This document shows, in pieces, positions 37,584 to 56,357 of a stretch of 64,000 bases of DNA. Location: NCBI GenBank assembly GCA_963676565.1, contig OY781089.1:64001-128000 (forward strand), given 5' to 3'. How positions within the stretch are numbered: the stretch's first letter is position 1; each line of letters starts with the position of its first letter. The position numbers and the translations under genes were made by a program. Origin of the DNA: Halarcobacter sp. (GTDB lineage: Bacteria; Campylobacterota; Campylobacteria; Campylobacterales; Arcobacteraceae). A model generated the notes under the pieces. The model searched no databases and had not been told where the DNA came from. It worked only from the letters and a program-made list of their open reading frames with translations.

Positions 37584-37592
37584 GTAATATAC

Positions 37593-38723: not shown

Positions 38724-38982
38724 AATTTACCCACTTTCTATCAAAGGCTTCATCAAAAAATGCTTCCACATCTTTTTCTAATCCTGACATCTCAAACTTT
38801 TTTTCCAATGTTGAAACTATTTCATTAAAATTCTTAGTTCCATCACATTGGTTCATTATTTCACCAGCACTTTGATTTAGTTGAACCATACCTTCTGGGT
38901 ATAATAAAACAAAACAATCTTGTGCTTGCTCAAATTGTAATTGAAAGTGTTCATTCACTACAATTAATTTTTCTTTGTTCAT
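38713..38982 (-). CDS. pqqD: PqqA-binding chaperone
   Basis: [27 protein letters not shown]...CDG. Confidence 0.93.
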
Positions 38983-39709
38983 TTTCATAACCTTCAATAT
39001 TGAAATACGGTGGTCTTTTTAATTCGTATGCCAAATATAAAGCATCACACATAGTCCAAAGTATATCAAGTTTAAACTGTAAAATTTCAAAAGCTTTATT
39101 TTGAAGTTCAACTGTATTAAACTCTTCTAAAGTGATTGAAAGTCCATGTTGAACATCCCTTCTTGCTTCACTCAATCTTTTTTGGAAATATCTCAAACCT
39201 TTTGCTTCAATCCAAGGATAATTATCTGGCCATGTACTTAATCTTTGTTGGTGAATTTGAGGTGCAAACATCTCAGTTAAAGATGACATTGCAGCTTCTT
39301 TCCAAGGTCTTTGTTTTGCAAAGTTAATATAAGCATCTACTGCAAATTTAACTGATGGTAAAACATATTTATGAGAAATTAAATCCTCTTTATTTAATCC
39401 AACAGCTTCACCTAATTCAAGCCAAGCTTCAATTCCACCACCAACACTATCATGGTCAATAATTCTATCAATCCATTTTCTTCTATCTTCTAAAGGTGGG
39501 TTATTTGACATAATTGCTGCATCTTTAATTGGAATTGCTGTTTGATAATAAAATCTATTTGCTACCCAGCCTTGGATTTCCTCTTTTGTACAATCCCCTT
39601 GATACATTCTAATATGAAATGGATGGTGAATGTGATACATATCACCCATACCTCTTAACTTTGCTTCAAACTCTTCTTTACTTAGTAATTCACTCATTTT
39701 TTTTGTCAT
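38951..39709 (-). CDS. pqqC: Pyrroloquinoline-quinone synthase
   Basis: [39 protein letters not shown]. Confidence 0.96.
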
Positions 39710-39772
39710 TCTTCTTCTCCTTATTTAATGTCAAATTTTTTATTTTTTTATAAAAAGAAATAAATATATTCT

Positions 39773-40690: not shown

Positions 40691-40751
40691 AATATATCCT
40701 TTCATTTTTCCTCAAAGAAAAAAATTCCCACATTTTTTTGTTTGAAGAAAA

Positions 40752-40773
40752 GACTAGAGCAAAAGCTCTAGTC
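40752..40773 (-). terminator. Hairpin between pqqA and pqqB
   Basis: GACTAGAGC-N4-GCTCTAGTC followed on minus strand by TTTTCTT. Confidence 0.75.
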
Positions 40774-40785
40774 AAGTTTAAAAAA

Positions 40786-40860
40786 TTACTTTGTACAAAT
40801 GTACATAGTAACTTCAAAACCAAATCTGTTATCTACGAATGTAGGTGTTTCCCATTTCAT
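40786..40860 (-). CDS. pqqA: PQQ precursor peptide, 24 aa (MKWETPTFVDNRFGFEVTMYICTK; not in ORF track)
   Basis: W-x-x-P...R-F-G-F-E-V-T-M-Y with ExxxY core; AAGGAGGT RBS; directly upstream of pqqB. Confidence 0.95.
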   Translation of the reverse strand: MKWETPTFVDNRFGFEVTMYICTK

Positions 40861-40896
40861 TTTAGTTACCTCCTTTTTTGATTTTCAGATTAACTA

Positions 40897-42678
40897 TTAT
40901 TTTTTAAATAATTTAAATACGTGAACAGTTCCACCTTGGTTTATATTCTTAATAAGTTTTGCAACTTCACCACCCCATAAAGGAACAGCTCCACCCCAAC
41001 CTGAAACGATTGCGATATATTGCTCACCATTTTGCTCCCAAGTAATAGGAGAAGAAACAATTCCAGAACCAGCATTGTATTTAAATAAAATCTCACCAGT
41101 TTCATCATCAAATGCTAAGAATTTACCTTCAGGAGTTCCTGTAAATACAAGTCCACCAGCAGTAGTTAAAACTCCACCCCATAGTGGTGCAGGGTTTTTA
41201 TATTCCCATTTAATTTTTCCTGTCATTGGCTCAATTGCTTTAAGTGAACCAATGTGATCTTCAAAGATTGGTTTAATTGTAAATCCAGCACCTAAGTAAG
41301 CAGCACCTTTTTTATAATGAATTGGTTGATTCCAAATATCCATTCCCCACTCATTTGAAGGAACATAGAATAATTCAGTCTTTTTAGAATAAGCCATTGG
41401 CATCCAGTTTTTACCACCTAAGAATGAAGGAACAGAGAATACTGATTTACCTTTTGAAGCATCACCAGGATTTCCAGGTCTTCCATCTGCTGTTAACATT
41501 GGTCTACCATTTTTATCAATTCCAGTTGCCCAAGTAATATTTGAAACAAATGGATTAGCAGTAACGAATTTACCATTAGTTCTATCTAATACATAGAAGA
41601 AACCATTTCTATCTGCAGTTGCAGCATATTTCTTACCATCTTTATTAAATGAAACTAACTCATTAACACCATCGAAATCCCATCCATCATGTGGAGTAGT
41701 TTGATAATGCCAAACAATTTTTCCTGTATCAGGATTAATTGCTAATCTTGAAGAAGAGTATAAGTTGTCTCCTGGTCTATTATGTGAGTTCCATGGTGCA
41801 GGGTTTCCTGTTCCAAAGAATAATAAATCAGTCTCAGAGTCATATGTACCACCAAGCCAAGTTGCAGCTCCACCAGTTTTCCATAAATCTCCAGGCCATG
41901 TTTTACCAGCTTCGCCACCAGTAATTCCATTTTCTTTTCCATTTAAGTAACCCATGTGACCTTCAACAGTTGGTCTAGTCCAAATTAGTTTACCAGTTTT
42001 AGCATCATAAGCTTCAACTTTACCAACAATACCAAACTCACCACCAGCTACACCAGTGATAATCATATCTTTAACAACTAATGGAGCAGCAGTAATAGAG
42101 TAACCATCTTTATATTCCGCTACTTTTTTCTTCCATACTGTTTTTCCAGTTTTTCTGTTTAATGCCACTAATTTAGCATCTAGTGTTCCAAAAACTACTA
42201 AATCACCATAAATTGCAGCACCTCTGTTGATTACATCACAACATGGTAAGATTCCACTTGGAAGTCTTGCATCATATTGCCATAACTCTTCACCAGTTGC
42301 TAAATCAATTGCATACATTCTAGAATAAGATGCAGTTACATACATAACACCATCTTTTACTAATGGTTGAGATTCTTGACCTCTTTGTTTTTCACCACCA
42401 AATGAGAAATTCCATACAGAAACTAAATCTTTAACAGTCTCTTTATTCACCTGAGTCAGTGGTGAAAATCTTTGACCATTTTGTCCATGTCCATATGTTA
42501 AAACATCCCCAGTTGTTTTATCATCATTTAAAATCTCATCATATGTTACAGATGTATATGATGGCTTTGTAACCGCTGATTTACTATCAGACATTGCAGT
42601 GTTGCTAGTCGCACATCCACTAATTAATGCAGAAAGCGTAACAGCTACTGCACTAGTTAGTAAAAAACTCTTTTTCAT
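40897..42678 (-). CDS. pedH: PQQ-dependent alcohol dehydrogenase, lanthanide-type (PedH/ExaF-like), predicted lipoprotein
   Basis: Vicinal C146-C147 (PCCDVINRG), E214 (GGEFG), N292 (GNP), D334-F-D336 ([11 protein letters not shown]), [12 protein letters not shown]; lipobox ISGC22. Confidence 0.9.
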
Positions 42679-42723: not shown

Positions 42724-42755
42724 AGTATATATGAGAAAAGTAGCAACAGTTTAGC
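42724..42755 (-). promoter_or_regulatory. pedH promoter with GCTA box
   Basis: GCTA-AACTGTT-GCTA-CTTTTCTCATA-TATACT on minus strand. Confidence 0.75.
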
Positions 42756-43533
42756 TATTGTTAACTTTTTTTGATTTAAACCCTAAAAATGCCATAATTA
42801 AAGTTATAATAAGAGATATTACTAGTACTAGAAGTGCCTGTGTATCGACCTTTAGGTATAGTGAGAACCTAATAGATTCTACAATATAAGTAAAAGGATT
42901 ATATGAAGAAATTTCATATAAAAGTATAGACGAATCTTTAATTTTCCAAAGTGGGTATAAAGCGGAACTTAAAAAGAACATTGGGAAGATAACAAAGTTC
43001 ATTACAGTTGCAAAATTTTCTAATTGTTTTATAACAGAAGAGATAAAAAGTGCAAAGGCATTAAGAATTATAGATGAAATTATAATTATAGGAATAGTTA
43101 CCACTATTGCCAAATATGAAATATCTACCCCATACAATTTAGCAATAAGTAAAAAAGTGATTGCTTGAATTGTTGATACTATTGAAGTTGCAAACATTTT
43201 ACAAAATAGTAAGAAATTTCTATTTATATAAGAAGATAAAAGTATTTTCATACTACCCATCTCCCTATCAAATATCATTGTTAAACTACTTTGCATACCA
43301 TTAAAAAGTAATACCATCCCAACAAGTCCTGGAACAATATAGGTTTCATAGGTGATATAAGTTTCATATGGAGGAGTAATAGCAAGTCCTAAAGCAGTTT
43401 TAAAACCAACTGAAAAGATAAATAGCCAAAGTAAAGGTCTAACAAGAGCTGAAAAAAATCTACTTTTTTGTTTAACGAATCTAATTAATTCTTTGTAGAT
43501 AATACCTTTCATACAATTAAAATATATATTCAT
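42751..43533 (-). CDS. ABC-2 type permease of the PQQ-ADH-associated transporter (PedC-like)
   Basis: SALVRPLLWLF, PPYETYITYETYIVPGL, LFNGMQSSL, DREMGSM, SSALYPLW. Confidence 0.85.
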   Translation of the reverse strand: MNIYFNCMKGIIYKELIRFVKQKSRFFSALVRPLLWLFIFSVGFKTALGLAITPPYETYITYETYIVPGLVGMVLLFNGMQSSLTMIFDREMGSMKILLSSYINRNFLLFCKMFATSIVSTIQAITFLLIAKLYGVDISYLAIVVTIPIIIISSIILNAFALFISSVIKQLENFATVMNFVIFPMFFLSSALYPLWKIKDSSILLYEISSYNPFTYIVESIRFSLYLKVDTQALLVLVISLIITLIMAFLGFKSKKVNNS

Positions 43534-43535
43534 GG

Positions 43536-44258
43536 CTATTTTACAATTTGATTGAAAGTATCAACCAAATTCTCCTTTTCATATTTTTCCATAATAGCAC
43601 TCACAATACCCGTTTCTACTATTTTACCATCTTTAATAAATGAAATTTCATCATCTTCATTTACCTCATCGAAAAGATGAGTAATCCAAAGAACACTTAG
43701 GTTTTCCCTTTTTACTAAATCTCTAACATAATCTAAGATATCAAATCTACTTTTTAAATCAAGTCCAACAGTAGGTTCATCAAGTAAAAGTAGTTTTGGT
43801 TTATTAATTAGAGCCCTTAAAATTTCAACTCTTCTTCTATGTCCTCCATTTAGTTTTCTAGCTGTAGTATCTAAATGTGGTTTTAATTCAAGTCTTTCAA
43901 TCTCATTTTCAATTGATTTTATTGTTTGTACAAAACCTAAGCCCTTTAATGAACCATAATAATAAAGATTTTGTCTAACAGTTAAATCTAAATCTAAAGT
44001 TGGTTCTTGAAAAACAATACCAATATTTTTTAAAGCTTCACTATAGTTTTTTATGGAGTGATTATTTATATTGATTTCACCAACTTCAAGTTTAAGAAGT
44101 CTTGTAATAAGTGAAAAAATAGTTGATTTTCCAGCTCCATTTAGTCCCAATAAAACTGAAAACTCACCTTTTTTTATATTAAAAGAAACCTTATCTAATA
44201 CCTGTTTCTTTCCATAGGAAAAATCTACCTCTTTTAATTCTAATATTTTTTCACTCAT
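43536..44258 (-). CDS. ABC ATPase of the PQQ-ADH-associated transporter (PedB-like)
   Basis: GLNGAGKST, TLDLDLTV, LNGGHRRRVEI, LDEPTVGLD. Confidence 0.85.
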   Translation of the reverse strand: MSEKILELKEVDFSYGKKQVLDKVSFNIKKGEFSVLLGLNGAGKSTIFSLITRLLKLEVGEININNHSIKNYSEALKNIGIVFQEPTLDLDLTVRQNLYYYGSLKGLGFVQTIKSIENEIERLELKPHLDTTARKLNGGHRRRVEILRALINKPKLLLLDEPTVGLDLKSRFDILDYVRDLVKRENLSVLWITHLFDEVNEDDEISFIKDGKIVETGIVSAIMEKYEKENLVDTFNQIVK

Positions 44259-44270
44259 TTTACAACTTTA

Positions 44271-45242
44271 CTATTTACTAGGAATTACTGCTAATCCCCA
44301 AGGATATCTTCCTACTTTTATTGTTTTTTCTACTTTTAAAGAATCAACATCTATTACAGATACATCACCACTTACACCATTTGTAGTATAAAGTTTTTTC
44401 TCATTCTGGGCAAAAGCTAATTGCCAAACTCTTTTTCCAACTAATAAATACTTTATAACTTTATATGTTTTTGCATCAATTACAGCAACATGGTTAGCTG
44501 GTCCTAAAGCTACAAAGGCATATTTTCCATCGCTTGTTAGTTTAATACCAACTGGCTGAATTAAATCTTTAAAAATCCCAGGAATTTTAAAACCTAATTT
44601 TGCAACACTCTCTTTTGTTTTAGTGTCAACTACCACAACAGTCCCACCAATCTCACTTGATGCCCAAACTTTATCACCATTTTTTGAAAATTCTATATGT
44701 CTTGGTCTTGCATCCACTAAAGTATTATGAACAATCTCTTTTGTTTTTGTATCAATCCAATGTAAAAAGTTAGAAGTTTCTGATGTATTAATAGCCATAC
44801 TTCCATCAGGACTTACAGCCATCCCCTCAGGTTCTAAACCAACTTCAATTTGAGATACTACAGTTCTATTTGGAATATCTACAACAGTTACAATTCCATC
44901 ATTCTCATTTGATATATAAAGCTCTTTCCCATCTGGATGTAATGCAAACTGCTCTGGGTCCTCACCTGATGGTAAATTATATAAGATTTCCCCTGTTTTA
45001 GTATCCATAGCTTGAACTGTATCATCATCACTTGCACAAATATATAATTTTTTATAATCACTTGTAAGCAGTATTCCTCTAGGTCTTTGCCCTACTTCAT
45101 ATGTTTTTATAACTTTATTTGTATCTGAATCAATAACACTAATAGTATTGTCTTTCTCATTTGATACAAATATTGTATCTGCACTTAAGATTGATGCAGC
45201 CAATACTGATAAAATAGATGTAAAAATTAATTTCTTCATCAC
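44271..45242 (-). CDS. Periplasmic YVTN beta-propeller protein of PQQ catabolism clusters (PedA2-like)
   Basis: VSNEKDNT, GQRPRGI, ASDDD, SGEDPE, SSEIGG, ALGPANHVAV, GRYPWG. Confidence 0.85.
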   Translation of the reverse strand: MMKKLIFTSILSVLAASILSADTIFVSNEKDNTISVIDSDTNKVIKTYEVGQRPRGILLTSDYKKLYICASDDDTVQAMDTKTGEILYNLPSGEDPEQFALHPDGKELYISNENDGIVTVVDIPNRTVVSQIEVGLEPEGMAVSPDGSMAINTSETSNFLHWIDTKTKEIVHNTLVDARPRHIEFSKNGDKVWASSEIGGTVVVVDTKTKESVAKLGFKIPGIFKDLIQPVGIKLTSDGKYAFVALGPANHVAVIDAKTYKVIKYLLVGKRVWQLAFAQNEKKLYTTNGVSGDVSVIDVDSLKVEKTIKVGRYPWGLAVIPSK

Positions 45243-45263
45243 TAATTCCCTTTTAATAAAAAT

Positions 45264-45683
45264 TTATTCAACAATAAAAGTTGCTCTTTCTCTATCACTT
45301 TTAGCTGATGGTAAACCTAAAGTAAAAGTTCCTGGTTTAATAGGTATAAAAGTCATTTCAATTTCACCTTCATCATCAAACTCAAACCCATCTAAACCTA
45401 GTGGTCTTACTTCAATACCGTTAATAGATATTTGATTTACCCAAATATTTCTAAAAAAAGCTGCACCTACTATAGGTATTTCTCTAGAACCATCACTTTT
45501 TAAAACAAGTTCGTAATATTTACCCGATTCTAATTTATATGGTTCACTTGCAAGTGGTTGACCCACACTAATAGTAATAGGATTTAATTTAGTTTTAGAG
45601 TGTAATAAACCCTTCAAATTTTTAGCCGTTGCAAATTCTCCTGTTAAAAGTAGCATAGCTATTAATAATACAATTTTCTTCAT
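45264..45683 (-). CDS. Exported small beta-sandwich protein (possibly cupredoxin-like), function unknown
   Basis: Signal peptide; FFRNIW...IEVRPLG...EFDDEG...FIPIKPG; no Cys. Confidence 0.6.
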   Translation of the reverse strand: MKKIVLLIAMLLLTGEFATAKNLKGLLHSKTKLNPITISVGQPLASEPYKLESGKYYELVLKSDGSREIPIVGAAFFRNIWVNQISINGIEVRPLGLDGFEFDDEGEIEMTFIPIKPGTFTLGLPSAKSDRERATFIVE

Positions 45684-45711
45684 GCATAATCCTTTTTGTA
45701 ATTTATCTTTA

Positions 45712-45798
45712 ATTGTAATGAAGCTTTATAGCTATAATATAGCGTATTGATTTTTGTTATCATATTGCTAGACTGAGGCTATACATTTTATATATACT
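45712..45798. promoter_or_regulatory. Back-to-back promoters, each with a GCTA box
   Basis: Minus: GCTA-TATTATA-GCTA-TAAAGCTTCAT-TACAAT (45743-45712); plus: GCTA-GACTGAG-GCTA-TACATTTTATA-TATACT (45767-45798). Confidence 0.75.
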
Positions 45799-45825
45799 TT
45801 TACAAAATATATTTTAAGGATAGAA

Positions 45826-46977
45826 ATGAAACGATTATTTAGTCTATTTTTAATGTTAGGGTTTATAAATGCCTTTGCACTAGAAGTAAATATTTTATAT
45901 CTAGAACAAAAAATAAAAAAGCCTCCAGTACTTTCAAATATAATTGAAGACCCAGAAGATTTAGGATTAAAGGGGGCTCAAAAAGCTATAATAGACTCAA
46001 ATAAAAGTGCTAGATTTTTAAATCAAAAATACAATCTAATTGAAAAAATCTCTTATGATAAAGCTCAATTAAAAAAAGATTTTGAAGAATTTATAAATGC
46101 AGGTAACTCATATGTGGTATTAAATGTAGAAGATGATTTTTTAAAAGTGTTACTAAATGACCCACTTTCAAAAAAAGCTTTAATGGTAAATGCATCTAGT
46201 CCAACTACAAGTTTAAGACAAAACTACTGTTTACCAAACTTACTTCATACAGCTCCTTCAAATGCCATGCTTTATGATGGCTTAGTTCAATTTTTAGTAA
46301 AAAGAGATTTTAAAGATATCTTTTTAATAAGTGGAGAAAATCCAAAAGATAAAGAGATACTAAAAGATATAAAAAGGTCAGTAAAAAAATTTAATGCAAA
46401 AATTATAAAAGAAAAAGTTTGGGATAATAATTCAGATATTAGAAGAAAAGCAAATGCAGAATTTCCTGTATTTACACAAGCTAGTGATTATGATTTAATT
46501 ATGTTAGCTGACCATTATGGAGATTTTGGGGAGTTTATGTATTTTAATACTTGGCTTCCTAGACCAATAGCCGGAACTCAGGGATTAACTCCAACAGCTT
46601 GGCATAAAGTTATTGAAGCTTGGGGAGCAGCTCAAATGCAAAGTAGATTTGAAAAGTTTGCAAAAAGATGGATGCAATCAAAGGATTACACAAACTGGAC
46701 AGCAGTTAGATCTATCATTGGTGCAATCACAAAAACAAATTCTGCTGATTTAAAAACAAACCTTGATTTTATTCACTCTGATAAGTTTGATTTAGCAGCA
46801 TATATGGGAAGAAAATTATCATTTAGAGATTATAATGGACAGCTTAGAATGCCAATTTCACTTGTTCAACCTAGGGCACTTATTTCAGTTTCTCCACAAG
46901 TTGGCTTTTTACATCCTAAAACTGATTTAGATACTTTGGGTATTGCACCCTTTGAGATGAAGTGTAAAAATGATTAA
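45826..46977 (+). CDS. ABC substrate-binding protein of PQQ-ADH systems (PedA1-like)
   Basis: Signal peptide; NLLHTAPS, PRPIAGTQGL, EAWGAAQMQSRF, GQLRMP, SPQVGFLHP..DLDTLG...C. Confidence 0.82.
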   Translation: MKRLFSLFLMLGFINAFALEVNILYLEQKIKKPPVLSNIIEDPEDLGLKGAQKAIIDSNKSARFLNQKYNLIEKISYDKAQLKKDFEEFINAGNSYVVLNVEDDFLKVLLNDPLSKKALMVNASSPTTSLRQNYCLPNLLHTAPSNAMLYDGLVQFLVKRDFKDIFLISGENPKDKEILKDIKRSVKKFNAKIIKEKVWDNNSDIRRKANAEFPVFTQASDYDLIMLADHYGDFGEFMYFNTWLPRPIAGTQGLTPTAWHKVIEAWGAAQMQSRFEKFAKRWMQSKDYTNWTAVRSIIGAITKTNSADLKTNLDFIHSDKFDLAAYMGRKLSFRDYNGQLRMPISLVQPRALISVSPQVGFLHPKTDLDTLGIAPFEMKCKND

Positions 46978-47425
46978 ATCTTTTCTTGCACTTTTAGTTC
47001 TTAGCCTAAGTATAAATGCCTATGAGGTAACAGATAAAGATAATTACTTTACTGTAAAAATTCAAGATGAAAAATTTCATGAACTATATGTGAATTTAAA
47101 AGATGAAATAAATTTTAATTCATATGTTATAGTTCATGAATTAAATTTAGCAAAGTCTACTAAGGCTGTTGCTGATGCTCTAGAGGAAAAAGTTGTTGTA
47201 AAAAATGGAATAAATTTATTGATTTGTAAAACCTCATTTACCCTTAAAATGCATCAAGAAAATATTCACAATATGACTTTTTGTCCAATGGTTATCTCTA
47301 TATACGAAGATGAAACCTCAAACTATATATCTTTTAGGAAATATCACCCTCTAAATAACAATGATAAAATAGCACTTACTATAAATAAAAGACTAAAAAC
47401 ATTAATTTTAAACTCCCTTGATTAA
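46970..47425 (+). CDS. Exported DUF302-like protein
   Basis: Signal peptide; LICK and FCPMVISIYE. Confidence 0.6.
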   Translation: MIKSFLALLVLSLSINAYEVTDKDNYFTVKIQDEKFHELYVNLKDEINFNSYVIVHELNLAKSTKAVADALEEKVVVKNGINLLICKTSFTLKMHQENIHNMTFCPMVISIYEDETSNYISFRKYHPLNNNDKIALTINKRLKTLILNSLD

Positions 47426-47509
47426 AAACTTTCACCTTAATTAAAATTTTTTTTAAATTGCTATTTAAATATATAATAATATAATGATATTATCTATAGG
47501 GAGAGAATT

Positions 47510-49636
47510 ATGAAAAATAATATAATAATACTATTGATAATTATTTGTTTCTCGATATTTTTTTTTCTAACTTTAGATATAAATAAAAATGAATTAATAA
47601 ATACAGAAAAAAAAGATGATAACTCCAAGATTGAATTAAAACTTGCCCATAATCTACCAAAAAATAGTGCTTTACATGAAGCATCTGTTTTATATGCAAA
47701 AAAAATAGCTGAACTTACAAAAAATAGAGTGGAAATTAAAATATTCCCTGAACAAAAATTAGGAAATGACTATCAAATGATAGAGCTGGCAAGTCAAGGA
47801 AAAATTGATATTATAATAACTCCTACTGCAAAAATGAGTGTATCAGTTCCCTCAATGCAATATGCAGACTTACCATTTTTATTTCCAACAAGAGAGGATG
47901 CCTATGAACTTTTAGATGGAGAAGTTGGGAAAATGATTCTAAAAGATTTAGATAAAATTGATCTTTTAGGTATTGGTTTTTGGGAGAATGGCTTTAAACA
48001 TTTTACTGCGAACTCTAAATTAACTAGTCCGACAGATTTCAAAGGCAAAAAGATTAGAGTTATGAAAAGTAGAATAATAATGGAGCAATTTAAAGCTTTA
48101 GGGGCACAAGCTATACCTATTGATTTTCATTCTACTAAAAAAGCTTTAGAAGATAAAGTTGTTGATGGACAGGAAAACCCTTTAGTTGCAATTGTAAATA
48201 TGCAATTTCATAAAGTTCAATCAAATTTAACTATAAGCGAACATGCATATTTACCATATTTATTTTCCATGAGTAAAAAAAGCTTACGAAAACTTCCTGT
48301 AGAGATTCAAGATATTTTAACTAATAATTTAGATGAGATTACAAAATGGGAAAGAAAAGAAACCCAAATAAGAGAAAAAGAGTTCCTAGAAACAATAAAA
48401 AATGAAGGTGTAAAAATACACTATTTAACAAAAGAAGAGAAAGAAGCCTTTAGAGAAAAAACTAAATATATTGTAAAAATGTATGAAAGAGTGATTGGTT
48501 CAAATATAATTTCTAAAACTGAAGAGATATTAAATAAAAAATATGCAAATAAAGATAATATATATTTTGGTTTAGATGTAAATCTTTCAATTGGAAATAA
48601 AGACTCAGGCTTATCTTTAAAAAGAGGCGTTGAATTGGCAATTGAAGAGATTAATTCAAATGGTGGATTATTAGGTAAAAAAATCAACCTTCTTACAAAA
48701 GATAATGAAGCTATTACAACTAAGGCTTTGAAAAATTTTAAAGAGTTCTCAAAAAATGACAATGTAAAAGTTGTAATAGGTGGGAAAAGAAGTTCTATAA
48801 TTTCAAAAGAACTAGAAGATATCCAAAAAAGTAAAAAACCTTATTTTTCACCTTGGGCATCTGCAGATAAAATTGTTAATAATGGTTATGAAGAAAACTA
48901 TATTTTTAGAGTTTCTACAAATAATAAATTTATTATAAATAGACTTTTAAAAGAGTCTTTAAAAGATGATAAAAAGCCCTTAATCGTTGTCGAAAACTCT
49001 ATTTGGGGAAGAGGAGCCCTAGAACTTATAAAACAAGACAATAAAGAGTTAGAATCTATTATTATAAACCAAGGTCAAACTAATTTTGATAATTTAATAT
49101 CTAAAATAAAACAACATAAAACAAAATCAATCTTAATGGTTTTAAATACTTTAGAAGCATCAAATATCTTAAAGACTTTGTATGAAAACCAAATAAAGAT
49201 ATCAATATCTTCACATTGGGGTATTTTAGGTGGAAAGTTTTATGAACAAAATAAAGAATACCTAAGTAATATCGATTTGAAATTTATTCAATCTTTTAGC
49301 TTTATAAAAAATAAATCAAAGAAAGCAGAAGAGTTTGCTTTAAGATATATCAAAAAATATGGTGAGAAATCTACTTATGATATAGTTTCTCCTTCCTCTG
49401 TTGCTCAAGCATATGATTCTACTATGATAATTGCACAAGCAATAAAAGATGCCAACTCCTTTGAGGGAGAAAAAATAAAAAATGCCCTAGAAAATTTAAA
49501 AGAATATAATGGTTTGATAAAAAAATATATAAAACCATTTAGTAAAACTGACCACGAAGCTTTAGAGAAAAAAGACTTTTTCTTTGCAAAATATGATCAA
49601 AAAGGAAGAGTTATTCCAATTGGTGAAATAAAGTAA
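47510..49636 (+). CDS. Membrane-anchored fusion of TRAP DctP-type and LivJ-type solute-binding domains
   Basis: N-terminal TM; DLPFLF, WENGFK, KIRVM, DGQENP (DctP); GVELAIEEINSNGGLLGK, AQAYD (periplasmic binding protein type 1). Confidence 0.82.
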   Translation: MKNNIIILLIIICFSIFFFLTLDINKNELINTEKKDDNSKIELKLAHNLPKNSALHEASVLYAKKIAELTKNRVEIKIFPEQKLGNDYQMIELASQGKIDIIITPTAKMSVSVPSMQYADLPFLFPTREDAYELLDGEVGKMILKDLDKIDLLGIGFWENGFKHFTANSKLTSPTDFKGKKIRVMKSRIIMEQFKALGAQAIPIDFHSTKKALEDKVVDGQENPLVAIVNMQFHKVQSNLTISEHAYLPYLFSMSKKSLRKLPVEIQDILTNNLDEITKWERKETQIREKEFLETIKNEGVKIHYLTKEEKEAFREKTKYIVKMYERVIGSNIISKTEEILNKKYANKDNIYFGLDVNLSIGNKDSGLSLKRGVELAIEEINSNGGLLGKKINLLTKDNEAITTKALKNFKEFSKNDNVKVVIGGKRSSIISKELEDIQKSKKPYFSPWASADKIVNNGYEENYIFRVSTNNKFIINRLLKESLKDDKKPLIVVENSIWGRGALELIKQDNKELESIIINQGQTNFDNLISKIKQHKTKSILMVLNTLEASNILKTLYENQIKISISSHWGILGGKFYEQNKEYLSNIDLKFIQSFSFIKNKSKKAEEFALRYIKKYGEKSTYDIVSPSSVAQAYDSTMIIAQAIKDANSFEGEKIKNALENLKEYNGLIKKYIKPFSKTDHEALEKKDFFFAKYDQKGRVIPIGEIK

Positions 49637-51357
49637 TGAAACCTAAACCAATTAAAAATAGTATAAAAAATAAAATCATAATTCAATTTACCCTCATATT
49701 ATCTGTTTTTTTGTTACTAATTTCATTTTCAATTGGTTATTTATTTATTAAAAACACAGAATCCCATGCACAAGATTTATTAAAAAATAGAGCCTTATTA
49801 ATAGAAGAAAAAATACAAGAAAGACTTTATTACCTAATTGAGCAAACATCACTTCTTTCAAAAAACTCACTTATGGTTAATTCTTTAATTGATGATGATA
49901 ATAAAGAGGAATACCTTTTACCACTAGCTTCAAATTTTATGGAAGATAAAAATGTAAAAGACCTAAATATCATAGATTTTGATGGTGAGATAATTTTTAA
50001 AACTGCTAAAAATGTACCTAAATATAGTAAATCAATATATATTAGAAATGCACTAGCACTAGGACAAACAACATATTATTTAGAGAAAAATGAAAACAAA
50101 TTTATTGTTGTTTCACCTGTTAAATATTATGAAACAACCCAAGGGGCTTTAATAGCTACTTTTAATCTTGAAAAAATCTTACGAAAATATATAGTTAATT
50201 CAAATGATGAATATATTGAGATACTAAATACTAAAAATGATAAACTTTTATACACAAATAACCACGATGAAAATAAAAAGTACTATTCTTATAGTTTAAA
50301 AAATCAAAACTTATCACTTTTTGATGAATTAAATATTACATTAAATATTGGAAAACTAGAATCTGCATATCTATTTCCCATACAAGATGCTGTAAAAAAA
50401 GTACTTATTATGAGTTTTATTCTAATCTTGATTGGAACCTTACTCTCATATTTATTAGCTGAATCAATCACTAAACCTATTATAGAATTATATAAAAAGA
50501 TAAACAATAATGAGTTTCATGAAAGATATAAGCCTTTAGGCACAAATGATGAATTAGAAGTATTATCATTTGCATTCCATGAAAAAGTAAAACAATTAAA
50601 TCAATTTAAAAATGAAGAGTTAGAGAAACAAAAACTTTTACTAGAACAGTCAAAAATGGCCTCATTAGGTGAGATGATTGGAAATATTGCCCATCAATGG
50701 AGACAACCTTTATCTGTTATATCAACTGCTTCAAGTGGTTTAAAAATGAAACAAGAATATGGGATTTTAGAAGAACATGAGATGTATTCTGTTCTTGATT
50801 CTATTAATGAAAACACCCAATACTTATCAAAAACAATTGATGACTTTAGAAATTTTATTATTGGGAAAAGAGAAAAGAAACAATTTAACTTAAGTAAACA
50901 AATTGATAGTTTTTTATCTTTAATGATGGGAAGTATAAAAACACATGAAATCAATATAGTACGTAAAGAACAAACAGATATAGAGATTAATGGATACCCA
51001 AATGAATTAACCCAATGTTTAATGAATATAATTAATAACTCAAAAGATGCCTTTGAAGAAAAGGGAATAAAAGAAAAATATATTTTTATAAAAACATATA
51101 CTAAAAATTCTTCAATTTTTATAGAAATTAAAGACAATGCAGAAGGTATTGATGAAGATATTATCCTAAAAATATTTGAACCTTATTTTACAACAAAACA
51201 TAAATCCAGAGGTACAGGATTAGGACTTAGTATGACATATAGATTGATTACTGAAGGGATGAAGGGTAATATAAAAGTAAGAAACACAACTTTTAATTAT
51301 GAAAAGAAAACCTATAAAGGGGCAGAATTTATTATTACTTTACCCCCTGTAGATTAG
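49636..51357 (+). CDS. Membrane sensor histidine kinase (periplasmic domain, HAMP)
   Basis: Two TMs, ITKPI HAMP, GEMIGNIAHQWRQP, NSKDA, PYFTTK, GTGLGL; no adjacent regulator. Confidence 0.9.
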   Translation: MKPKPIKNSIKNKIIIQFTLILSVFLLLISFSIGYLFIKNTESHAQDLLKNRALLIEEKIQERLYYLIEQTSLLSKNSLMVNSLIDDDNKEEYLLPLASNFMEDKNVKDLNIIDFDGEIIFKTAKNVPKYSKSIYIRNALALGQTTYYLEKNENKFIVVSPVKYYETTQGALIATFNLEKILRKYIVNSNDEYIEILNTKNDKLLYTNNHDENKKYYSYSLKNQNLSLFDELNITLNIGKLESAYLFPIQDAVKKVLIMSFILILIGTLLSYLLAESITKPIIELYKKINNNEFHERYKPLGTNDELEVLSFAFHEKVKQLNQFKNEELEKQKLLLEQSKMASLGEMIGNIAHQWRQPLSVISTASSGLKMKQEYGILEEHEMYSVLDSINENTQYLSKTIDDFRNFIIGKREKKQFNLSKQIDSFLSLMMGSIKTHEINIVRKEQTDIEINGYPNELTQCLMNIINNSKDAFEEKGIKEKYIFIKTYTKNSSIFIEIKDNAEGIDEDIILKIFEPYFTTKHKSRGTGLGLSMTYRLITEGMKGNIKVRNTTFNYEKKTYKGAEFIITLPPVD

Positions 51358-51752
51358 TATTTCCCAAACTCTTTGTAAGTTTTATCTTCAAAAATTATAA
51401 ATACTGTTTTAGGGTTTTTATCGTTTTCATAAGCTGGAAGAGATAATCCAATTGCATTTTTAGGTTTTTCCTTCAAAAAGTCTTTTATAGCACGTGAGGG
51501 AACATTCCCTTCAAAAACATAATCTCCCATTAGTGAAGTATTACAAGATTGAATATCATAAGGAATTCCTATTTGTCTTTTTAAATTTTTTACATTCATA
51601 ACTGTAACAACATCAACCTCTTTTGCTACTTTTTCCATCTCTATAAACCAAGATTTAGGGCAAGTGCTTGTTGGTGGTTGAAAAACTTGTAGTTTAGATT
51701 CACTGGCAAAAAGTGAAATTGCCAACAAACAAAAAGCTAAAATTTTCATCAT
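51354..51752 (-). CDS. Exported DUF411/CopG-like protein with altered metal ligands
   Basis: PTSTCPKSW, GIP...QSCNT, YVFEGNVP, GLSLP follow the DUF411 pattern. Confidence 0.6.
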   Translation of the reverse strand: MMKILAFCLLAISLFASESKLQVFQPPTSTCPKSWFIEMEKVAKEVDVVTVMNVKNLKRQIGIPYDIQSCNTSLMGDYVFEGNVPSRAIKDFLKEKPKNAIGLSLPAYENDKNPKTVFIIFEDKTYKEFGKY

Positions 51753-52447
51753 AATTCTCCTTTTAAAATATTTGGATATTTTTCCAATAGATTATTTTTT
51801 ATTTGATCAATATTTTTAATATCAAAACTTTGATTATTAGGGTTATTAAACTCTAAAACTATTTTTGCAGGTTTACTAGAAAGAAATAAAATTCTATTGG
51901 AAAATAAAATTGCTTCACTAATATCATGAGTTACTAAAACAACAATTGGATTAAACTTATTACATAGTTTTAAAAACTCTTTTTTTAATTCTTGGGAAGT
52001 TGGAAAATCCAAAGATATAAAAGGTTCATCTAAAAAAATTACCTCTGGTTGGTTTATAAAAGCTCTAGCTAGTGCAACTCTTCTTTTCATACCACCAGAT
52101 AAAGCCTTTGGAAACTTATCTAAAACATCTTCTAATGCAACTAATTTTAAAATATCATTTATCTCATCTAAATCTTTAGATCTTGAAACTAATAAAAGAT
52201 TTTCTTTGATACTAAGCCAAGGTAATAATCTATCATCTTGAAACATAAATGATATATTTTTATAAGGCATTGAAATATCACCTTTGTAATCAGTTTCTAA
52301 ATTTGCCAATAAATTTAAAAAAGTGCTTTTACCACAACCACTAGGACCAACAATTGAAATGAACTCTTGTTCTTTAATTTTAAATTCAATATCTTCTAAT
52401 ACCTTTATTTCATTAAAACTTTTGTTTTGAATATTTATATTTATCAT
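51749..52447 (-). CDS. NitT/TauT-type ABC ATPase
   Basis: GPSGCGKST, FQDDRLLPW, LSGGMKRR, LDEPF, VTHD. Confidence 0.88.
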   Translation of the reverse strand: MININIQNKSFNEIKVLEDIEFKIKEQEFISIVGPSGCGKSTFLNLLANLETDYKGDISMPYKNISFMFQDDRLLPWLSIKENLLLVSRSKDLDEINDILKLVALEDVLDKFPKALSGGMKRRVALARAFINQPEVIFLDEPFISLDFPTSQELKKEFLKLCNKFNPIVVLVTHDISEAILFSNRILFLSSKPAKIVLEFNNPNNQSFDIKNIDQIKNNLLEKYPNILKGEL

Positions 52448-52448
52448 T

Positions 52449-53183
52449 TTATTTCCATTCCAACATCTTATTTTCTAAAGGTTTTAAAATAGCCATCTCT
52501 ATAAACATAACAATAAAAATAAAAGCTAAAGAATAAGCTAATATAGAAGTTATATCAAAAAATTGGAAAAACATTGAGATTTTAAATCCTATACCATCAC
52601 TTCTCCCAAGTAATTCAACAACTAAAACTATTTTCCAAATTAAAGACAAAGATAATCTAGCAGAAGCCATCATATATGGATAAATTTGAGGTAAAAAAAC
52701 TTTGAAAAACACTTGTTTTTTTGGAACCTTATAAACTTTTGCTAAATCCATATATTTTGACTCAATTGCCCTAGTCCCTTCCCTTATATTAACAACTACT
52801 ATTGGAACTTTATTTATAATTACAGCTAGAAGTGCTGCAAAATCAGTTAATCCAAACCAAATATAACAAATAACAATTACTACTAAAGCTGGAATATTTA
52901 AACCTAAAACTAATAAAAAATCAAAGATATCATCTATTTTTTTTGATATTCCCATTATAATTCCAAAAAATATTCCAATTATCATAGTGATAAAAAATGT
53001 TATTACAACCCTAAATAGTGTAATCTTTAAATCATCTAATAATTCCCCATCTACTAAATGTTCAAATAGTTTTATACCTATATCAACAGATGAAGGGAAA
53101 ACTTGAGATGCAAGGACTATTGAAGAGGCTTGCCATATGATAATAAAAGCACAAATTGATAATAATCTAGTTTGTAACAACAC
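52449..53183 (-). CDS. NitT/TauT-type ABC permease
   Basis: NIPALV, WFG, NKVP, WKIVLVVELLG. Confidence 0.85.
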   Translation of the reverse strand: MLLQTRLLSICAFIIIWQASSIVLASQVFPSSVDIGIKLFEHLVDGELLDDLKITLFRVVITFFITMIIGIFFGIIMGISKKIDDIFDFLLVLGLNIPALVVIVICYIWFGLTDFAALLAVIINKVPIVVVNIREGTRAIESKYMDLAKVYKVPKKQVFFKVFLPQIYPYMMASARLSLSLIWKIVLVVELLGRSDGIGFKISMFFQFFDITSILAYSLAFIFIVMFIEMAILKPLENKMLEWK

Positions 53184-53201
53184 TTTTTCCTAATTTTTAT
53201 T

Positions 53202-54161
53202 TTACTGATTAGTTTCCCAAAAAGTTGCAGGGTCTAACTCTTTGCTATTTTTAACTAATTTTTTTCCACCTTGTTTTTGTAATACTTTAAATATTTTTTT
53301 TGAATCTTCGATGTTTTTTTCATCAAATTTAAGTATCACTCCATTTTTATAGCCCTCTTTTAATGAGTTAAATGTTACTTCATCTTTTACTTTCATCAGT
53401 GGTTTTATTCTATCCCATTCTTTATCATCTTCTAACAAGATTTTTTTAGCACTTTTACTTGCATTTATAAATGAATCATATAATCTTGGATCCATGAGAG
53501 CTAAATCTCTTCTAAATGTCCAACCAATTAAAGGTATATCTTCATTAATTCCAAAACTTTTAAAAACCTCTTTAATTTCAATAATAGGTCTTGCTCCTTT
53601 TGCCTTTGCTTTTGCATTAAAATGCCAAAAGTTCAGCGCTCCATCTAAAGAACCATCAAGTACTTTTTTAAGTAATATGGGAGGAGCAGCAAAGGTTGGA
53701 TTAATAATATCTTTAAAATCTTTGCCATATTTTAATTTACTATATGCCCTTAAGATAAGCCAAGTTTTATCAACAGGTCCTCCTGCAACTCCAATATTTT
53801 TCCCTTCTAAATCTAATAAAGTTTTAGCATTACTGTTTTTTCCAAGGTATAAAGTCCCCGTTGCCTTAGAATAAGGGTAAAGTGTATAATCTCCCCCATT
53901 TGCCCTTTGAGTATTTACCCAAACCCAATCAGTAACTATAATATCAACACTTCCAGATTGAAGGGCTATTGATGTAGCATTTTTTGAAGCTAGTTTAACA
54001 ACTTCAAGTTCAAAACCATTTTTAATATCAAGTTTATTATGTTTTAAAACATCTAATTCCCAATTAACTGTTCCAAATGCTAAAACACCTACTTTTAATT
54101 TTTCCAAAGCATATAAATTTGTAAACAAAAAACAAATTGTTAAAAATATGATTTTAAACAT
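53202..54161 (-). CDS. NitT/TauT-type ABC substrate-binding protein
   Basis: Signal peptide; FGTVNWEL, DWVWV, GVAGGPVDKTW, NFWHF. Confidence 0.82.
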   Translation of the reverse strand: MFKIIFLTICFLFTNLYALEKLKVGVLAFGTVNWELDVLKHNKLDIKNGFELEVVKLASKNATSIALQSGSVDIIVTDWVWVNTQRANGGDYTLYPYSKATGTLYLGKNSNAKTLLDLEGKNIGVAGGPVDKTWLILRAYSKLKYGKDFKDIINPTFAAPPILLKKVLDGSLDGALNFWHFNAKAKAKGARPIIEIKEVFKSFGINEDIPLIGWTFRRDLALMDPRLYDSFINASKSAKKILLEDDKEWDRIKPLMKVKDEVTFNSLKEGYKNGVILKFDEKNIEDSKKIFKVLQKQGGKKLVKNSKELDPATFWETNQ

Positions 54162-54187
54162 CTATCTACCTTTTAATTATTTTTTAT

Positions 54188-54272
54188 ATTGTATATCAAT
54201 TAAGTAGCATCAATTTAGCATAATAAAAGATTTTTTAATTGCTATAATCAAGCTATAAAAACACTTTATAAT
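54188..54272. promoter_or_regulatory. Back-to-back promoters, each with a GCTA box
   Basis: Minus: GCTA-AATTGAT-GCTA-CTTAATTGATA-TACAAT (54219-54188); plus: GCTA-TAATCAA-GCTA-TAAAAACACTT-TATAAT (54241-54272). Confidence 0.75.
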
Positions 54273-54305
54273 TCCAACATGCAAAAATTTCGCAAAAGGA
54301 TATAC

Positions 54306-54725
54306 ATGAATAAAATCGAAAAATTAACACTTGCAGTTTTGTTTTCTGCAATAACTGCATTTGGGCATGGAAGTGTTACACCACAAAAAGTTGACACAAC
54401 AGGTTTAGAACAATTAGGTGATACTTGGGTATCAGAAAATCCATATAGTACTGATAATGCAAGAGCTGTAGAGATTGGAAGATCTGGATATAGTGAAAAC
54501 TGTGCAAGATGTCATGGACTTGATGTTATCTCTGGTGGTATTGCTCCTGATTTAAGAGAGTTAGATAAGTTTGAAGATGAATACTTCTTAGGAAAAGTAT
54601 TAAGTGGAGTTACAAGAAATGGTAATGTTTATATGCCATCATTTGCTGAAGTTTTAAGTCAAGAAGCAATTTGGGCAATTAGAACATATATCATGGATAG
54701 AAGAGCAAAAGACGGTATAGAGTAA
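54306..54725 (+). CDS. pedF: Cytochrome c550 (PedF/ExaB type)
   Basis: HGSVTPQ.VDT, ENPY, CARCHG, SGGIAPDLR, YMP, SQEAIWAIR; AAGGA RBS favours ATG at 54306. Confidence 0.9.
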   Translation: MNKIEKLTLAVLFSAITAFGHGSVTPQKVDTTGLEQLGDTWVSENPYSTDNARAVEIGRSGYSENCARCHGLDVISGGIAPDLRELDKFEDEYFLGKVLSGVTRNGNVYMPSFAEVLSQEAIWAIRTYIMDRRAKDGIE

Positions 54726-54729
54726 TATT

Positions 54730-55599
54730 ATGAAAATTCTTAGATTATTAGTTTTATTTGCACTTTTGATAGTTTTTGCAAAAGCAAGAAGCATTGAAGA
54801 GATTCAAGAAAGTGGTTATATAACAATAGCTGTTTACGAAGATTTTCCACCTTACTCATTTACAGAAAACAATGAGTTAAAAGGGATTGATGTAGATTTA
54901 GGAAAACTACTTGCAAAATCTCTAAAAGTAAAAGCTAAATGGCAATTAACAGGCTCTGATGAAACTTTAGCTGATGATCTAAGAATTAATATTTGGAAGG
55001 GTAATCTAATTCATAAAAACTATGCAGACGTAATGTTTAGAGTTCCATACGATTATGATTATTTAAGATTAAGAGATAAACAAACAGGTGAACTTCAAAC
55101 AGATATGGTTTCTATTAAAGGGCCATATCATAGTGAAAAATGGGTTATAGCAACACACAAGGATAAAATTCCAAAGATTAATACTTTAGGAATTTTTGCT
55201 TACCATACTATAGGTGTAGAGTTAGATACCCTTCCAGATAATCATTTAACAGGATTTGCAAGAGGTTTAATTAATAAAAATGTTAAACACTATTTCCACT
55301 TTAAAGATGCAATAAAAGATTTTAAAGAGGGAAAAATTGATGCAATTGCTGGATTAAAATCCCAATTAGAGTATCTATTAGATTTTAATAACAATAAAGA
55401 TAAGTTTTATATGACTAGTAAAATTCCACAAATAAAATCACACTGGGATATTGCCACAGCAGTTCACACTAGTTATAGACCATTAAGTTATCATATTGAT
55501 GGCTTAATATCTGAAAATTACGAGAATGGTAATATTAAAAAAATATTTGAAAAATATGGAGTCAATTACTTACCTCCAATAGCAAGAACACAACAATAA
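54730..55599 (+). CDS. Family-3 periplasmic binding protein (PedG-like)
   Basis: VYEDFPPYS, GIDVDL, DDLR, ADVMFRVPYD; directly after cytochrome c550. Confidence 0.78.
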   Translation: MKILRLLVLFALLIVFAKARSIEEIQESGYITIAVYEDFPPYSFTENNELKGIDVDLGKLLAKSLKVKAKWQLTGSDETLADDLRINIWKGNLIHKNYADVMFRVPYDYDYLRLRDKQTGELQTDMVSIKGPYHSEKWVIATHKDKIPKINTLGIFAYHTIGVELDTLPDNHLTGFARGLINKNVKHYFHFKDAIKDFKEGKIDAIAGLKSQLEYLLDFNNNKDKFYMTSKIPQIKSHWDIATAVHTSYRPLSYHIDGLISENYENGNIKKIFEKYGVNYLPPIARTQQ

Positions 55600-55613
55600 A
55601 ATAAGGAGTTGTC

Positions 55614-56357
55614 ATGAAAAGTATACTCATTTTCGCTACATTAATTCTAACAATGTTAAACCTAGAAGCAAAGAATCCTATAGTATCTCCCACTTTTGAT
55701 GATATTATCAAAATTACTATTGGCGAAGATGAGTATACCTTTGATGACAAAAATGTCCAAGTAAAGGTACCCTCTTTTGCTGATAACCCTGTTCAAGTTC
55801 CCATTTTTGTAGATGCCTCAAAAATTAAGAATCCTAAAAAAATGATTCTTTTTGCTGATTTGAATCCTATTCCAGTTATTTTAACTATGACACCAAAAGA
55901 TTTTCTACCAGTTATCTCAACAAATATAAAAGTTGCCCAAGAAACTCCTTTAAGAGCTTTAGTTTTAGATGAAAATAATCTATGGCATGTTGGAAGCGCA
56001 AACATCAATAGTAATGGTGGAGGTTGCGATGTAACAAGTTTAGCAGCTGCGAATGGAAATGTTGCAGAAAATATAGGGAAAAGTAAAGGGAAAATATTTG
56101 ATAAAAAAGATCAAAAAAGAGTTAAATTCTCAATATTTCATCCTATGGAAACTGGCTTAGTTTTTGGGGCTAGCTCATTTTTTATAAATAAAATAGAAAT
56201 TAAAGATGAGAATAACAAGTTATTAACTGTTTTAGATACAAGCGCAGCAATTAGTGAAAATCCAAGAATTACTTTAGAAACAAAAAAAGAGTTTAAAGAA
56301 TTAAATATCAACTTTTTGGATACTGATGCAAATAATTTTGAGTTAAATATAAAATGA
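55614..56357 (+). CDS. Quinoprotein-associated fused SoxY/SoxZ-like carrier
   Basis: P.FA.NP.QVP, DLNPIP, TPLRA, GGGC, HPMETG, ISENP. Confidence 0.8.
   Translation: MKSILIFATLILTMLNLEAKNPIVSPTFDDIIKITIGEDEYTFDDKNVQVKVPSFADNPVQVPIFVDASKIKNPKKMILFADLNPIPVILTMTPKDFLPVISTNIKVAQETPLRALVLDENNLWHVGSANINSNGGGCDVTSLAAANGNVAENIGKSKGKIFDKKDQKRVKFSIFHPMETGLVFGASSFFINKIEIKDENNKLLTVLDTSAAISENPRITLETKKEFKELNINFLDTDANNFELNIK

Follow-up and report, generated by a model that had tools for sequence, protein, structure and literature searches.

The alcohol-oxidation locus

The 64-kb stretch of the Halarcobacter sp. genome considered here (contig OY781089.1; G000:C1:64001-128000, hereafter the window) carries a cluster of alcohol-oxidation genes next to a two-component system, and a short tandem element, GCTA-N7-GCTA, recurs in front of the transcription units of this cluster. 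We discuss the distribution of this element and the regulator that probably acts on it. The source genome (G000) comprises 3.34 Mb on a single contig, with 28.4% G+C.

Judged from Pfam and NCBIfam profiles, the genes are assigned to a periplasmic alcohol-oxidation module of the ped/exa type, with a pyrroloquinoline quinone-dependent alcohol dehydrogenase (PQQ-ADH, or ADH) and an aldehyde dehydrogenase (aldDH; Table 1). The profiles TIGR03075, TIGR04494, TIGR03863, TIGR03866, TIGR03861, TIGR04557 and TIGR04558 scored above their NCBIfam cut-offs, and TIGR03864 (289.8 versus 302.25 bits) and ExaC (837 versus 900 bits) fell just under theirs. The kinase and regulator genes share a 4-bp overlap, and no family was assigned to the secreted proteins of 139 and 151 aa.

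The longest open reading frame (ORF) called for aldDH (33327-34967) exceeds the actual gene by 49 codons and takes in the aldDH promoter. We place the true start at ATG 34820, because residue 68 of the long ORF is the first of the Aldedh domain, an AAGGA ribosome-binding site precedes this ATG, and the ExaC profile then aligns end to end.

Table 1. Promoter boxes and genes discussed in the text. Positions are those of the window unless marked as genome positions.
Feature	Position	Strand	Description
aldDH promoter	34886..34939	-	Four GCTA units, N11, TAAGAT (34891-34886)
PQQ-ADH promoter	42724..42755	-	GCTAAACTGTT-GCTA-N11-TATACT
unk139-pedA2(YVTN)-pedB-pedC operon promoter	45712..45743	-	GCTATATTATA-GCTA-N11-TACAAT
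PedA1-like binding-protein operon promoter	45767..45798	+	GCTAGACTGAG-GCTA-N11-TATACT; 32.4 bits
Second ATP-binding cassette (ABC) operon promoter	54188..54219	-	GCTAAATTGAT-GCTA-N11-TACAAT
pedF promoter	54241..54272	+	GCTATAATCAA-GCTA-N11-TATAAT
NDH-2-like gene box	genome 1888371-1888402	+	Outside the window, 40 nt upstream of the gene; 29.5 bits
aldDH-DUF779 operon	32777..34820	-	ExaC-like acetaldehyde dehydrogenase, 33327-34820 (Pfam Aldedh); DUF779 protein, 32777-33154
Soluble histidine kinase	35032..36924	+	FIST_N/FIST_C N-terminal sensor, HisKA, HATPase_c (Pfam)
OmpR/PhoB-family response regulator	36921..37583	+	Receiver and winged-helix Trans_reg_C (Pfam)
PQQ-ADH-pqq operon	37593..42678	-	PQQ-ADH, 40897-42678 (methanol/ethanol family); pqqA; hairpin; pqqBCDE, 37593-40705 (Pfam, NCBIfam)
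pqqA	40785-40859	-	24 aa, MKWETPTFVDNRFGFEVTMYICTK, between the ADH gene and pqqB; read from the sequence
Terminator-like hairpin	40752-40773	-	After pqqA
unk139-pedA2-pedB-pedC operon	42751..45683	-	Secreted 139-aa protein; PQQ-associated beta-propeller, PedA2-like (TIGR03866); PedB-like ABC ATPase (TIGR03864); PedC-like ABC-2 permease (TIGR03861)
PedA1-like operon	45826..51357	+	PQQ_ABC_bind (PedA1-like); secreted 151-aa protein; DctP/Peripla_BP_6 fusion; orphan dCache histidine kinase
Second ABC operon	51354..54161	-	319-aa binding protein (weak SsuA/NMT1 likeness); permease; ATPase; DUF411 protein
pedF operon	54279..57259	+	Cytochrome c550 PedF; SBP_bac_3 (MoxJ-like); quinoprotein-associated SoxYZ-like carrier; zinc metallohydrolase 1 (TIGR04494, TIGR04557, TIGR04558; Pfam)

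A tandem GCTA box at fixed distance from the -10 hexamer

An earlier note on this DNA had described five tandem GCTA sites with identical spacing. All five were found at the positions and on the strands that it gave: 42741-42755 (-), 45729-45743 (-), 45767-45781 (+), 54205-54219 (-) and 54241-54255 (+). Each time, TATACT, TACAAT or TATAAT follows after 11 nt from the second GCTA. Two pairs of boxes stand back-to-back, with 23 bp between the box at 45743 (-) and the PedA1-like box at 45767 (+), and 21 bp between the box at 54219 (-) and the pedF box at 54241 (+). The five promoters therefore hold, but not the total of five that the earlier note attached to the regulon: the window contains six such promoters because three further, overlapping matches precede aldDH (34903-34939, -), and a seventh lies elsewhere in the genome. 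The aldDH promoter, with GCTA units at 34939, 34928, 34917 and 34906 in an 11-bp period, is the top matrix match genome-wide (40.7 bits). The six boxes stand upstream of exactly six transcription units of the alcohol-oxidation module.

GCTA-N7-GCTA has 8 matches in the window, versus a mean of 1.09 and a maximum of 5 in 100 dinucleotide-preserving shuffles; 0 of the 100 shuffles reach 8.

A motif built from 87 distinct sites gave the consensus G-C-T-A-W-A-Y-T-C-A-G / G-C-T-A-T-A-a-a-n-n-T-n-n-T-R / T-A-n-A-M-T. Several positions that the search pattern had left free are conserved, namely A6 in 84, T8 in 86, A10 in 76, T16 in 81 and A17 in 79 of the sites, and the columns flanking the motif are near background. 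This combination indicates that the conservation is selective and does not merely reflect the relatedness of the genomes. The first unit reads GCTAAA in 51 sites and GCTATA in 35, and the second reads GCTATA, which contains CTATA, in 79-81. Since the matrix sites were picked by the exact GCTA pattern, variant sites with CCTA, GCTT or GCTC are under-counted.

The GCTA words are direct repeats on the same strand, with an 11-bp period and 2-6 units per promoter, and of the 92 promoter-proximal tandem sites, 82 are followed by TAnnnT at a distance of exactly 11 nt. Read from the sequence, the six window promoters have no TTGACA-like hexamer 16-18 nt upstream of the -10 hexamer. They also have no TGn extended -10; the consensus carries T-R directly before TA.

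Occurrence across the genome

The genome has 11 copies of the full pattern GCTA-N7-GCTA-N11-TAnnnT, six of them inside positions 34886-54272 of the window, and the pattern read backwards has 0 matches. In intergenic DNA, as defined by a crude ORF mask, 32 GCTA pairs have N7 spacing, and each of the other spacings between N3 and N15 is represented by 0-10 pairs; GCTA-N11 before a -10 hexamer occurs 29 times, versus 6-20 at other spacings. A comparison with a shuffled background, of the kind that the earlier note had proposed for the whole genome, places GCTA-N7-GCTA above chance in the window. The 11-bp GCTA code is real, yet it extends beyond the alcohol-oxidation module.

A matrix was trained on 80 sites, all from genomes other than G000. 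At a threshold of 20 bits it gave 8 matches in G000 and 0 in five shuffled genomes. The 8 matches are the six window promoters, the site at genome position 1888371 and one site inside a coding region (699447). A chance origin of the GCTA tandems is rejected by the window shuffles, the reversed-pattern control and the matrix scan of shuffled genomes.

The site at 1888371 precedes a gene for an NDH-2-like Pyr_redox_2 flavoprotein of 400 aa (within G000:C1:1886001-1892000, locus L124). Regulation of this gene together with the module would be sensible, because aldDH makes NADH. The box occurs upstream of the NDH-2 orthologue in 13 of 30 loci, and since it is confined to these 13, the gene is best regarded as a lineage-variable member of the regulon. 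In two relatives (G135 and G039), an NDH-2-like gene lies on the contig of the regulator, 0.5-4 kb away from it.

Among 151 sampled genomes of the family, the median count of the full pattern was 11 in genomes with ADH (n=43) and 5 in genomes without ADH (n=108). The 14 genomes without a match to the regulator family had a median of 1. The reversed-pattern control gave 0-3 matches per strand over the 151 genomes.

Two further classes of GCTA tandem were observed in the source genome. At genome positions 2756214, 2758173 and 2767536 (-), GCTA-N7-GCTA is followed by a common CTTAAAAAGAACTT where the -10 hexamer at N11 is expected, and these three sites may belong to a further regulon using the GCTA repeat. 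A separate conserved class, GCTAYTGTTWTGCTA-N11-TAYAAT, lies at genome positions 141266-141300 (-) and is also present in G040, G097, G099, G013 and G120. It recurs near the kinase-regulator neighbourhood of several relatives and faces no obvious ORF. This class may drive a small gene or RNA, or may serve another regulator.

Conservation in the Arcobacteraceae

Orthologues of the PQQ-ADH were found in 42 of 150 sampled genomes of the family, in 10 of 22 genera including that of the window. At the loci compared, the ADH proteins are down to 70% identical and come from 10 genera; genes in the relatives were called by a longest-ORF script, so some start codons are imprecise. The region upstream of ADH was usable in 29 of 30 loci, L021 being incomplete. 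The exact full pattern was present in 24 of the 29, at 77-84 nt upstream of the ATG; four others have CCTA as the first unit, and L027 has an exact tandem followed by TAACCT instead of a -10 hexamer.

The remaining promoters of the module were followed in clusters from 10 ADH genomes, drawn from six other genus codes and the same genus. The box stands upstream of the units orthologous to aldDH, unk139 with its YVTN gene, the second ABC operon (SBP319-ABC) and pedF in all 10 mapped clusters, and upstream of the PedA1-like unit in 9 of 10 (exact pattern). Upstream of ADH it is exact in 8 clusters and a CCTA variant in the other 2. A porin-like outer-membrane gene (394-400 aa) with 1-6 GCTA units, which is absent from the window, lies inside the cluster of four relatives (L031, L040, L047 and L050, from G115, G130, G145 and G147).

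The same mapping script was applied to 20 kb around the regulator orthologue of 20 genomes in which no PQQ-ADH was found. In these neighbourhoods the pair of FIST kinase and regulator genes is always divergent from aldDH-DUF779, and 19 of the 20 genomes show 1-4 exact tandems upstream of aldDH. The exception, G048, has GCTA, GCTT, GCTC and GCTA at an 11-bp period, followed by N11-TAGAAT. Overall, an aldDH gene beside the divergent FIST pair bears the exact box, with 1-4 tandem matches, in 30 of 31 mapped genomes; in the remaining one, a degenerate box keeps the same period. A search with the kinase yielded 18 further public loci. The divergent promoter bears the box at 15 of these, and at one of the 15 the identity of the kinase is as low as 39%; of the other three loci, one is incomplete and two (one metagenome-assembled genome, duplicated) lack the box.

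Because the association of box, aldDH and FIST pair persists in genomes without ADH, the conserved core of the system appears to consist of the kinase-regulator pair and aldDH, with the PQQ-ADH module joining the regulon where it is present. The pattern shows aldehyde dehydrogenase as the ancestral target, and the PQQ-ADH module as recruited by gaining the same box.

The adjacent two-component system as probable regulator

The regulator encoded at 36921-37583 belongs to the OmpR/PhoB family, with a receiver that contains the phospho-acceptor Asp and a winged-helix Trans_reg_C domain. It scores 88.3 bits for Pfam Response_reg (cut-off 30.2) and 37.8 bits for Trans_reg_C (cut-off 26.2), has the DD..D (LLVFDINVP) and K (LKKPF) motifs, and aligns over its full length to the structures of DrrD, BasR/PmrA and PrrA. 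An orthologue is present in most of the 151 sampled genomes, and the recognition helix TIRAEVNRVKK is conserved in 31 orthologues. In the mapped clusters, no other transcription factor is conserved with the box in the module. The translation of the kinase shows no evident membrane segment, so its signal is probably cytoplasmic. Its FIST domains are of the type found in NosP.

We consider it probable that the GCTA repeats are the operator of this adjacent two-component system, with the regulator binding over the -35 region as an activator. The suggestion of the earlier note that one OmpR/PhoB-type activator runs the module through 11-bp direct repeats thus gains strong support from comparison among genomes, namely from the conservation of the box, its linkage to the FIST pair and the absence of any other conserved regulator. 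That the regulator activates, and does not repress, is an inference.

According to the mechanism that we propose, the FIST-domain kinase would respond to a signal in the cytoplasm that is linked with the oxidation of alcohol or aldehyde; our guess is that an aldehyde or alcohol is itself the ligand. The kinase would then phosphorylate the regulator, which would bind the tandem 11-bp units head-to-tail (GCTAWAYTCAG, then GCTATA). If transcription starts ~7 nt past the -10 hexamer, the two proximal units would cover about -38 to -17. Standing a constant 11 nt from the -10 hexamer, they would serve in place of a -35 element, and the regulator would recruit sigma-70 polymerase as PhoB does at the pho box. 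In this way, aldDH-DUF779, PQQ-ADH with pqqA-E, and the PedA1, PedA2, PedB and PedC transporter genes would be co-activated. The same would apply to the second ABC system with DUF411, to the electron-relay operon of PedF, SoxYZ-like carrier and metallohydrolase, and to the NDH-2-like NADH dehydrogenase gene elsewhere in the genome.

The public sequencing runs that hold this DNA are of DNA or of unspecified type. In two metatranscriptomes, the coding regions of ADH and pedF were matched only by contigs from relatives (90-99% alike), none of which extended to a promoter, and two raw-read oligo-dT/polyA runs contained 3 and 1 partly fitting reads.

A probable sister system at the acetate locus

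The source genome encodes ~35 OmpR-family paralogues, of which only one exceeds 38% identity to the regulator. This one is a sister regulator at genome positions 1348507-1349154 (within G000:C1:1333001-1351000, locus L123), which is 52% identical, has the helix TIRAEISRLKK and lies beside an sCache_2 kinase. Its neighbours are two DUF485-SSF (ActP-like) pairs, DUF294 and exonuclease genes, acetate kinase (ackA) and phosphotransacetylase (pta). Several of the acetate genes at this locus are preceded by GCTA-N7-GCTA with T-rich spacers, and a site of this class directly downstream of the sister regulator is conserved in many relatives.

It seems from these sequences that the GCTA core is common to two sister regulators of consecutive steps, from alcohol or aldehyde to acetate and then to acetate uptake and activation. 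The idea of the earlier note that the GCTA-N7-GCTA code defines the regulon can therefore be kept in part: the box does mark the promoters of the module, but the core alone is not specific to this regulon. Because the sister regulator appears to use the same core, specificity would come from the sequence between the two GCTA words (A6, T8, A10 and G11) and from the TA that follows the second.

Points against the proposed operator and alternative explanations

Several points weigh against the assignment of the box to the FIST system as an activator. The genomes compared are related and not statistically independent, and only 13 of the 30 NDH-2 orthologues carry the box. Moreover, Campylobacterota promoters often have no clear -35 element, so the position of the box alone does not prove activation. 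Two further points concern binding by another factor. Firstly, cross-binding or mis-assignment is possible because GCTA tandems also precede the acetate genes and the sister helix is near-identical. Secondly, four genomes served as negative controls, with an aldDH (79-88% identical) that has no kinase-regulator neighbour and with only paralogue-level matches to the regulator; all four keep GTTA, GTAA or GCAA-N7-GCTA-N11-TAnnAT at aldDH. As a degenerate box persists without the FIST pair, the proximal GCTA may also serve another factor.

The first alternative is that the same regulator binds the same boxes as a repressor, blocking polymerase at constitutive promoters until the signal relieves it. 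The boxes do overlap a region that polymerase must occupy, and strong -10 hexamers such as TATAAT, TATACT and TACAAT might allow initiation independent of a -35 element in AT-rich Campylobacterota. Against this, promoters with neither a -35-like hexamer at 16-18 nt nor a TGn extended -10 are hardly what constitutive expression would lead one to expect. Activators that contact sigma typically show a fixed phase to the -10 hexamer, as the boxes do at 82 of 92 sites. In addition, PceP of Sulfurospirillum, which has an equal architecture, activates its targets (PMC7755780). We regard repression as rather unlikely.

Another possibility is that the boxes are bound mainly by a different OmpR-family regulator with a GCTA core, such as the sister regulator, and that the FIST system controls something else or only aldDH. 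The near-identical recognition helix, the GCTA tandems before the adjoining acetate genes and the partial box at aldDH promoters without the FIST pair all agree with this idea. The site classes, however, differ consistently between the GCTA words, with A6, T8, A10 and G11 at the module and T-rich spacers at the acetate genes, and the ped/ald matrix finds no site above 20 bits at the acetate locus. Furthermore, 30 of the 31 mapped genomes combine the exact box with the FIST pair and 15 of 18 further loci combine a box with it, whereas the exact tandem is absent at aldDH in all four genomes without the pair. Hence, predominant binding by a different OmpR-family regulator is quite unlikely, and we retain the FIST-associated regulator as the probable activator at these boxes.

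A compositional or promoter-intrinsic element that binds no regulator, such as DNA curvature or the -35 of an alternative sigma factor, shared by chance or by descent, has only the AT-rich context in its favour and is very improbable: a strict 11-bp period goes with a variable number of units (2 to 6), neither word stands at a distance from the -10 hexamer that fits a -35 (11 nt for the second GCTA, ~20 nt for the first), matrix matches are confined to one functional module, aldDH and NDH-2, and the counts follow the presence of the regulator family. The alternative sigma factor is ruled out by the spacing and the variable number of units.

Comparison with known systems

The pho box of PhoB consists of two direct-repeat units with an 11-bp period, which replace the -35 element in class II activation by a winged-helix regulator that is activated by phosphorylation. 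The GCTA boxes share its fixed short distance to the -10 hexamer and its extra upstream units at some promoters. The word differs (CTGTCAT versus GCTAWAY here), as do the signal and the regulon, and the gap between the second 7-bp word and the -10 hexamer is ~8 nt here but ~10 nt in the pho box. Contact with sigma region 4 is presumed here.

According to the earlier note, the motif matches no box that its author could name. An approximate name is nevertheless possible, since the motif resembles the experimentally mapped (C)CTATA element of PceP (RR2) from Sulfurospirillum, the closest box in the literature consulted. PceP is an OmpR-family regulator that binds CTATA repeats 6 nt apart, which gives an 11-bp period, and most of these overlap the -35 region (PMC7755780). 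It activates eight transcription units of an organohalide-respiration regulon, as gel-shift assays and differential RNA sequencing revealed, and it also binds a CCTATA site of three units in the divergent intergenic region next to the operon for its two-component system (PMC7755780). Both systems belong to the same phylum and share an OmpR-family regulator, repeats with an 11-bp period whose (C)CTATA/CTATW core is matched here mainly by the second unit, overlap with the -35 region, a regulon of several operons and a multi-unit site in a divergent intergenic region at the two-component operon. In contrast, the same source describes a kinase with seven membrane helices, where ours is a soluble FIST kinase, and targets that are dehalogenase and cobamide genes instead of genes for alcohol and aldehyde oxidation. 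In the reading of its authors, the site is CTATW-N17-CTATW and the middle unit is reserved for sigma; the boxes described here have two units side by side, with 11 nt from the end of the second GCTA to the -10 hexamer. The first unit here is mostly GCTAAA and not CTATW.

SulRS of Sulfurimonas is also an OmpR-family two-component system of the Campylobacterota that acts through two direct repeats on a catabolic cluster beside its own genes (PMC12936845). It differs in its TTACA-type word, like that of OmpR of E. coli, in its membrane kinase that senses thiosulfate and in its sox regulon (PMC12936845).

The gene content of the module matches that of the Pseudomonas ped/exa clusters, with PQQ-ADH, PedF, PedA1A2BC, an ExaC-like aldDH, pqq genes and a FIST/NosP-type sensor and kinase in or beside the cluster (PMC12997753). 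The ped cluster of Pseudomonas encodes a NosP homologue and its kinase (PedS1/NahK/ErcS'), and FIST is a separate protein modulating a hybrid kinase there (PMC12997753), whereas it is fused to a classical kinase here. The outputs described for Pseudomonas are of the LuxR/NarL type (AgmR/ErbR, PedR2, EraR) and form a multi-layer cascade with PedS2-PedR2 (PMC12997753), in contrast to the single OmpR-type regulator with its own box in this genome. Pfam reported no LuxR-type domain in our regulator and no receiver domain among the matches of the kinase; the module does not follow the Pseudomonas scheme. The FIST parallel between the ped cluster and this kinase is suggestive.

Most likely, the system works as a class II activator regulon of the PhoB/PceP type, a conventional kind that would add no new regulatory principle. 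In open-access papers and bioRxiv we found no description of this regulon or box in Arcobacteraceae.

Other features of the locus

No GCTA box precedes the pqq genes, so their transcription would require either read-through from the ADH promoter or a separate promoter. In the ADH, residues 333-337 read WDFDG, a D-x-D arrangement. Such an arrangement would mark a lanthanide-dependent enzyme of the XoxF/PedH type versus a calcium-dependent one.

The ADH leader contains an inverted repeat just past the -10 hexamer (42697-42716, -), and such a repeat is kept across L002-L030. It reads AGAC-N8-GTCT in this genome; most genera have AGACAAA-N7-TTTGT, L026 and L028 have CAAC...GTTG, and the changes look compensatory. 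RNAalifold found no consensus fold for the ADH leaders. Possibly, the repeat is a hairpin at the 5' end of the mRNA or a second operator.

The DctP/Peripla_BP_6 fusion and the orphan dCache kinase (47510-51357, +), which end the PedA1-like operon, were not found in the 10 other mapped clusters. They may provide a second, periplasmic input to the same regulator. Rfam had no match within 32000-58000, and a generic sigma-70 scan of the region gave 104 promoter-like sites versus 114 in shuffles.

Implications

The box groups PQQ-associated genes of obscure role into one tractable regulon, including those for the two small secreted proteins, the DUF411 protein, the second ABC system, the SoxYZ-like carrier with its metallohydrolase, and the DUF779 protein. 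It also points to a GCTA recognition code common to sister regulators for consecutive steps of C2 metabolism.

More tentatively, and with considerable doubt, the NosP-type FIST domain could be a direct cytoplasmic sensor of a signal derived from alcohol or aldehyde. The occurrence of FIST beside PQQ-ADH and aldDH in two distant phyla might then reflect this role and not nitric-oxide sensing, and the sister system with its GCTA core for acetate uptake and activation would complete a paralogous relay along the pathway from ethanol to acetate.

To our knowledge, the ligands of the FIST domain family are largely unknown. The findings offer a first candidate operator and target list for a family of FIST-domain histidine kinases that is widespread in Arcobacteraceae. 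If the proposed one-step system is true, in which a FIST kinase signals to one OmpR regulator that acts on a box at seven promoters, it would provide a clean reporter for the FIST ligand.

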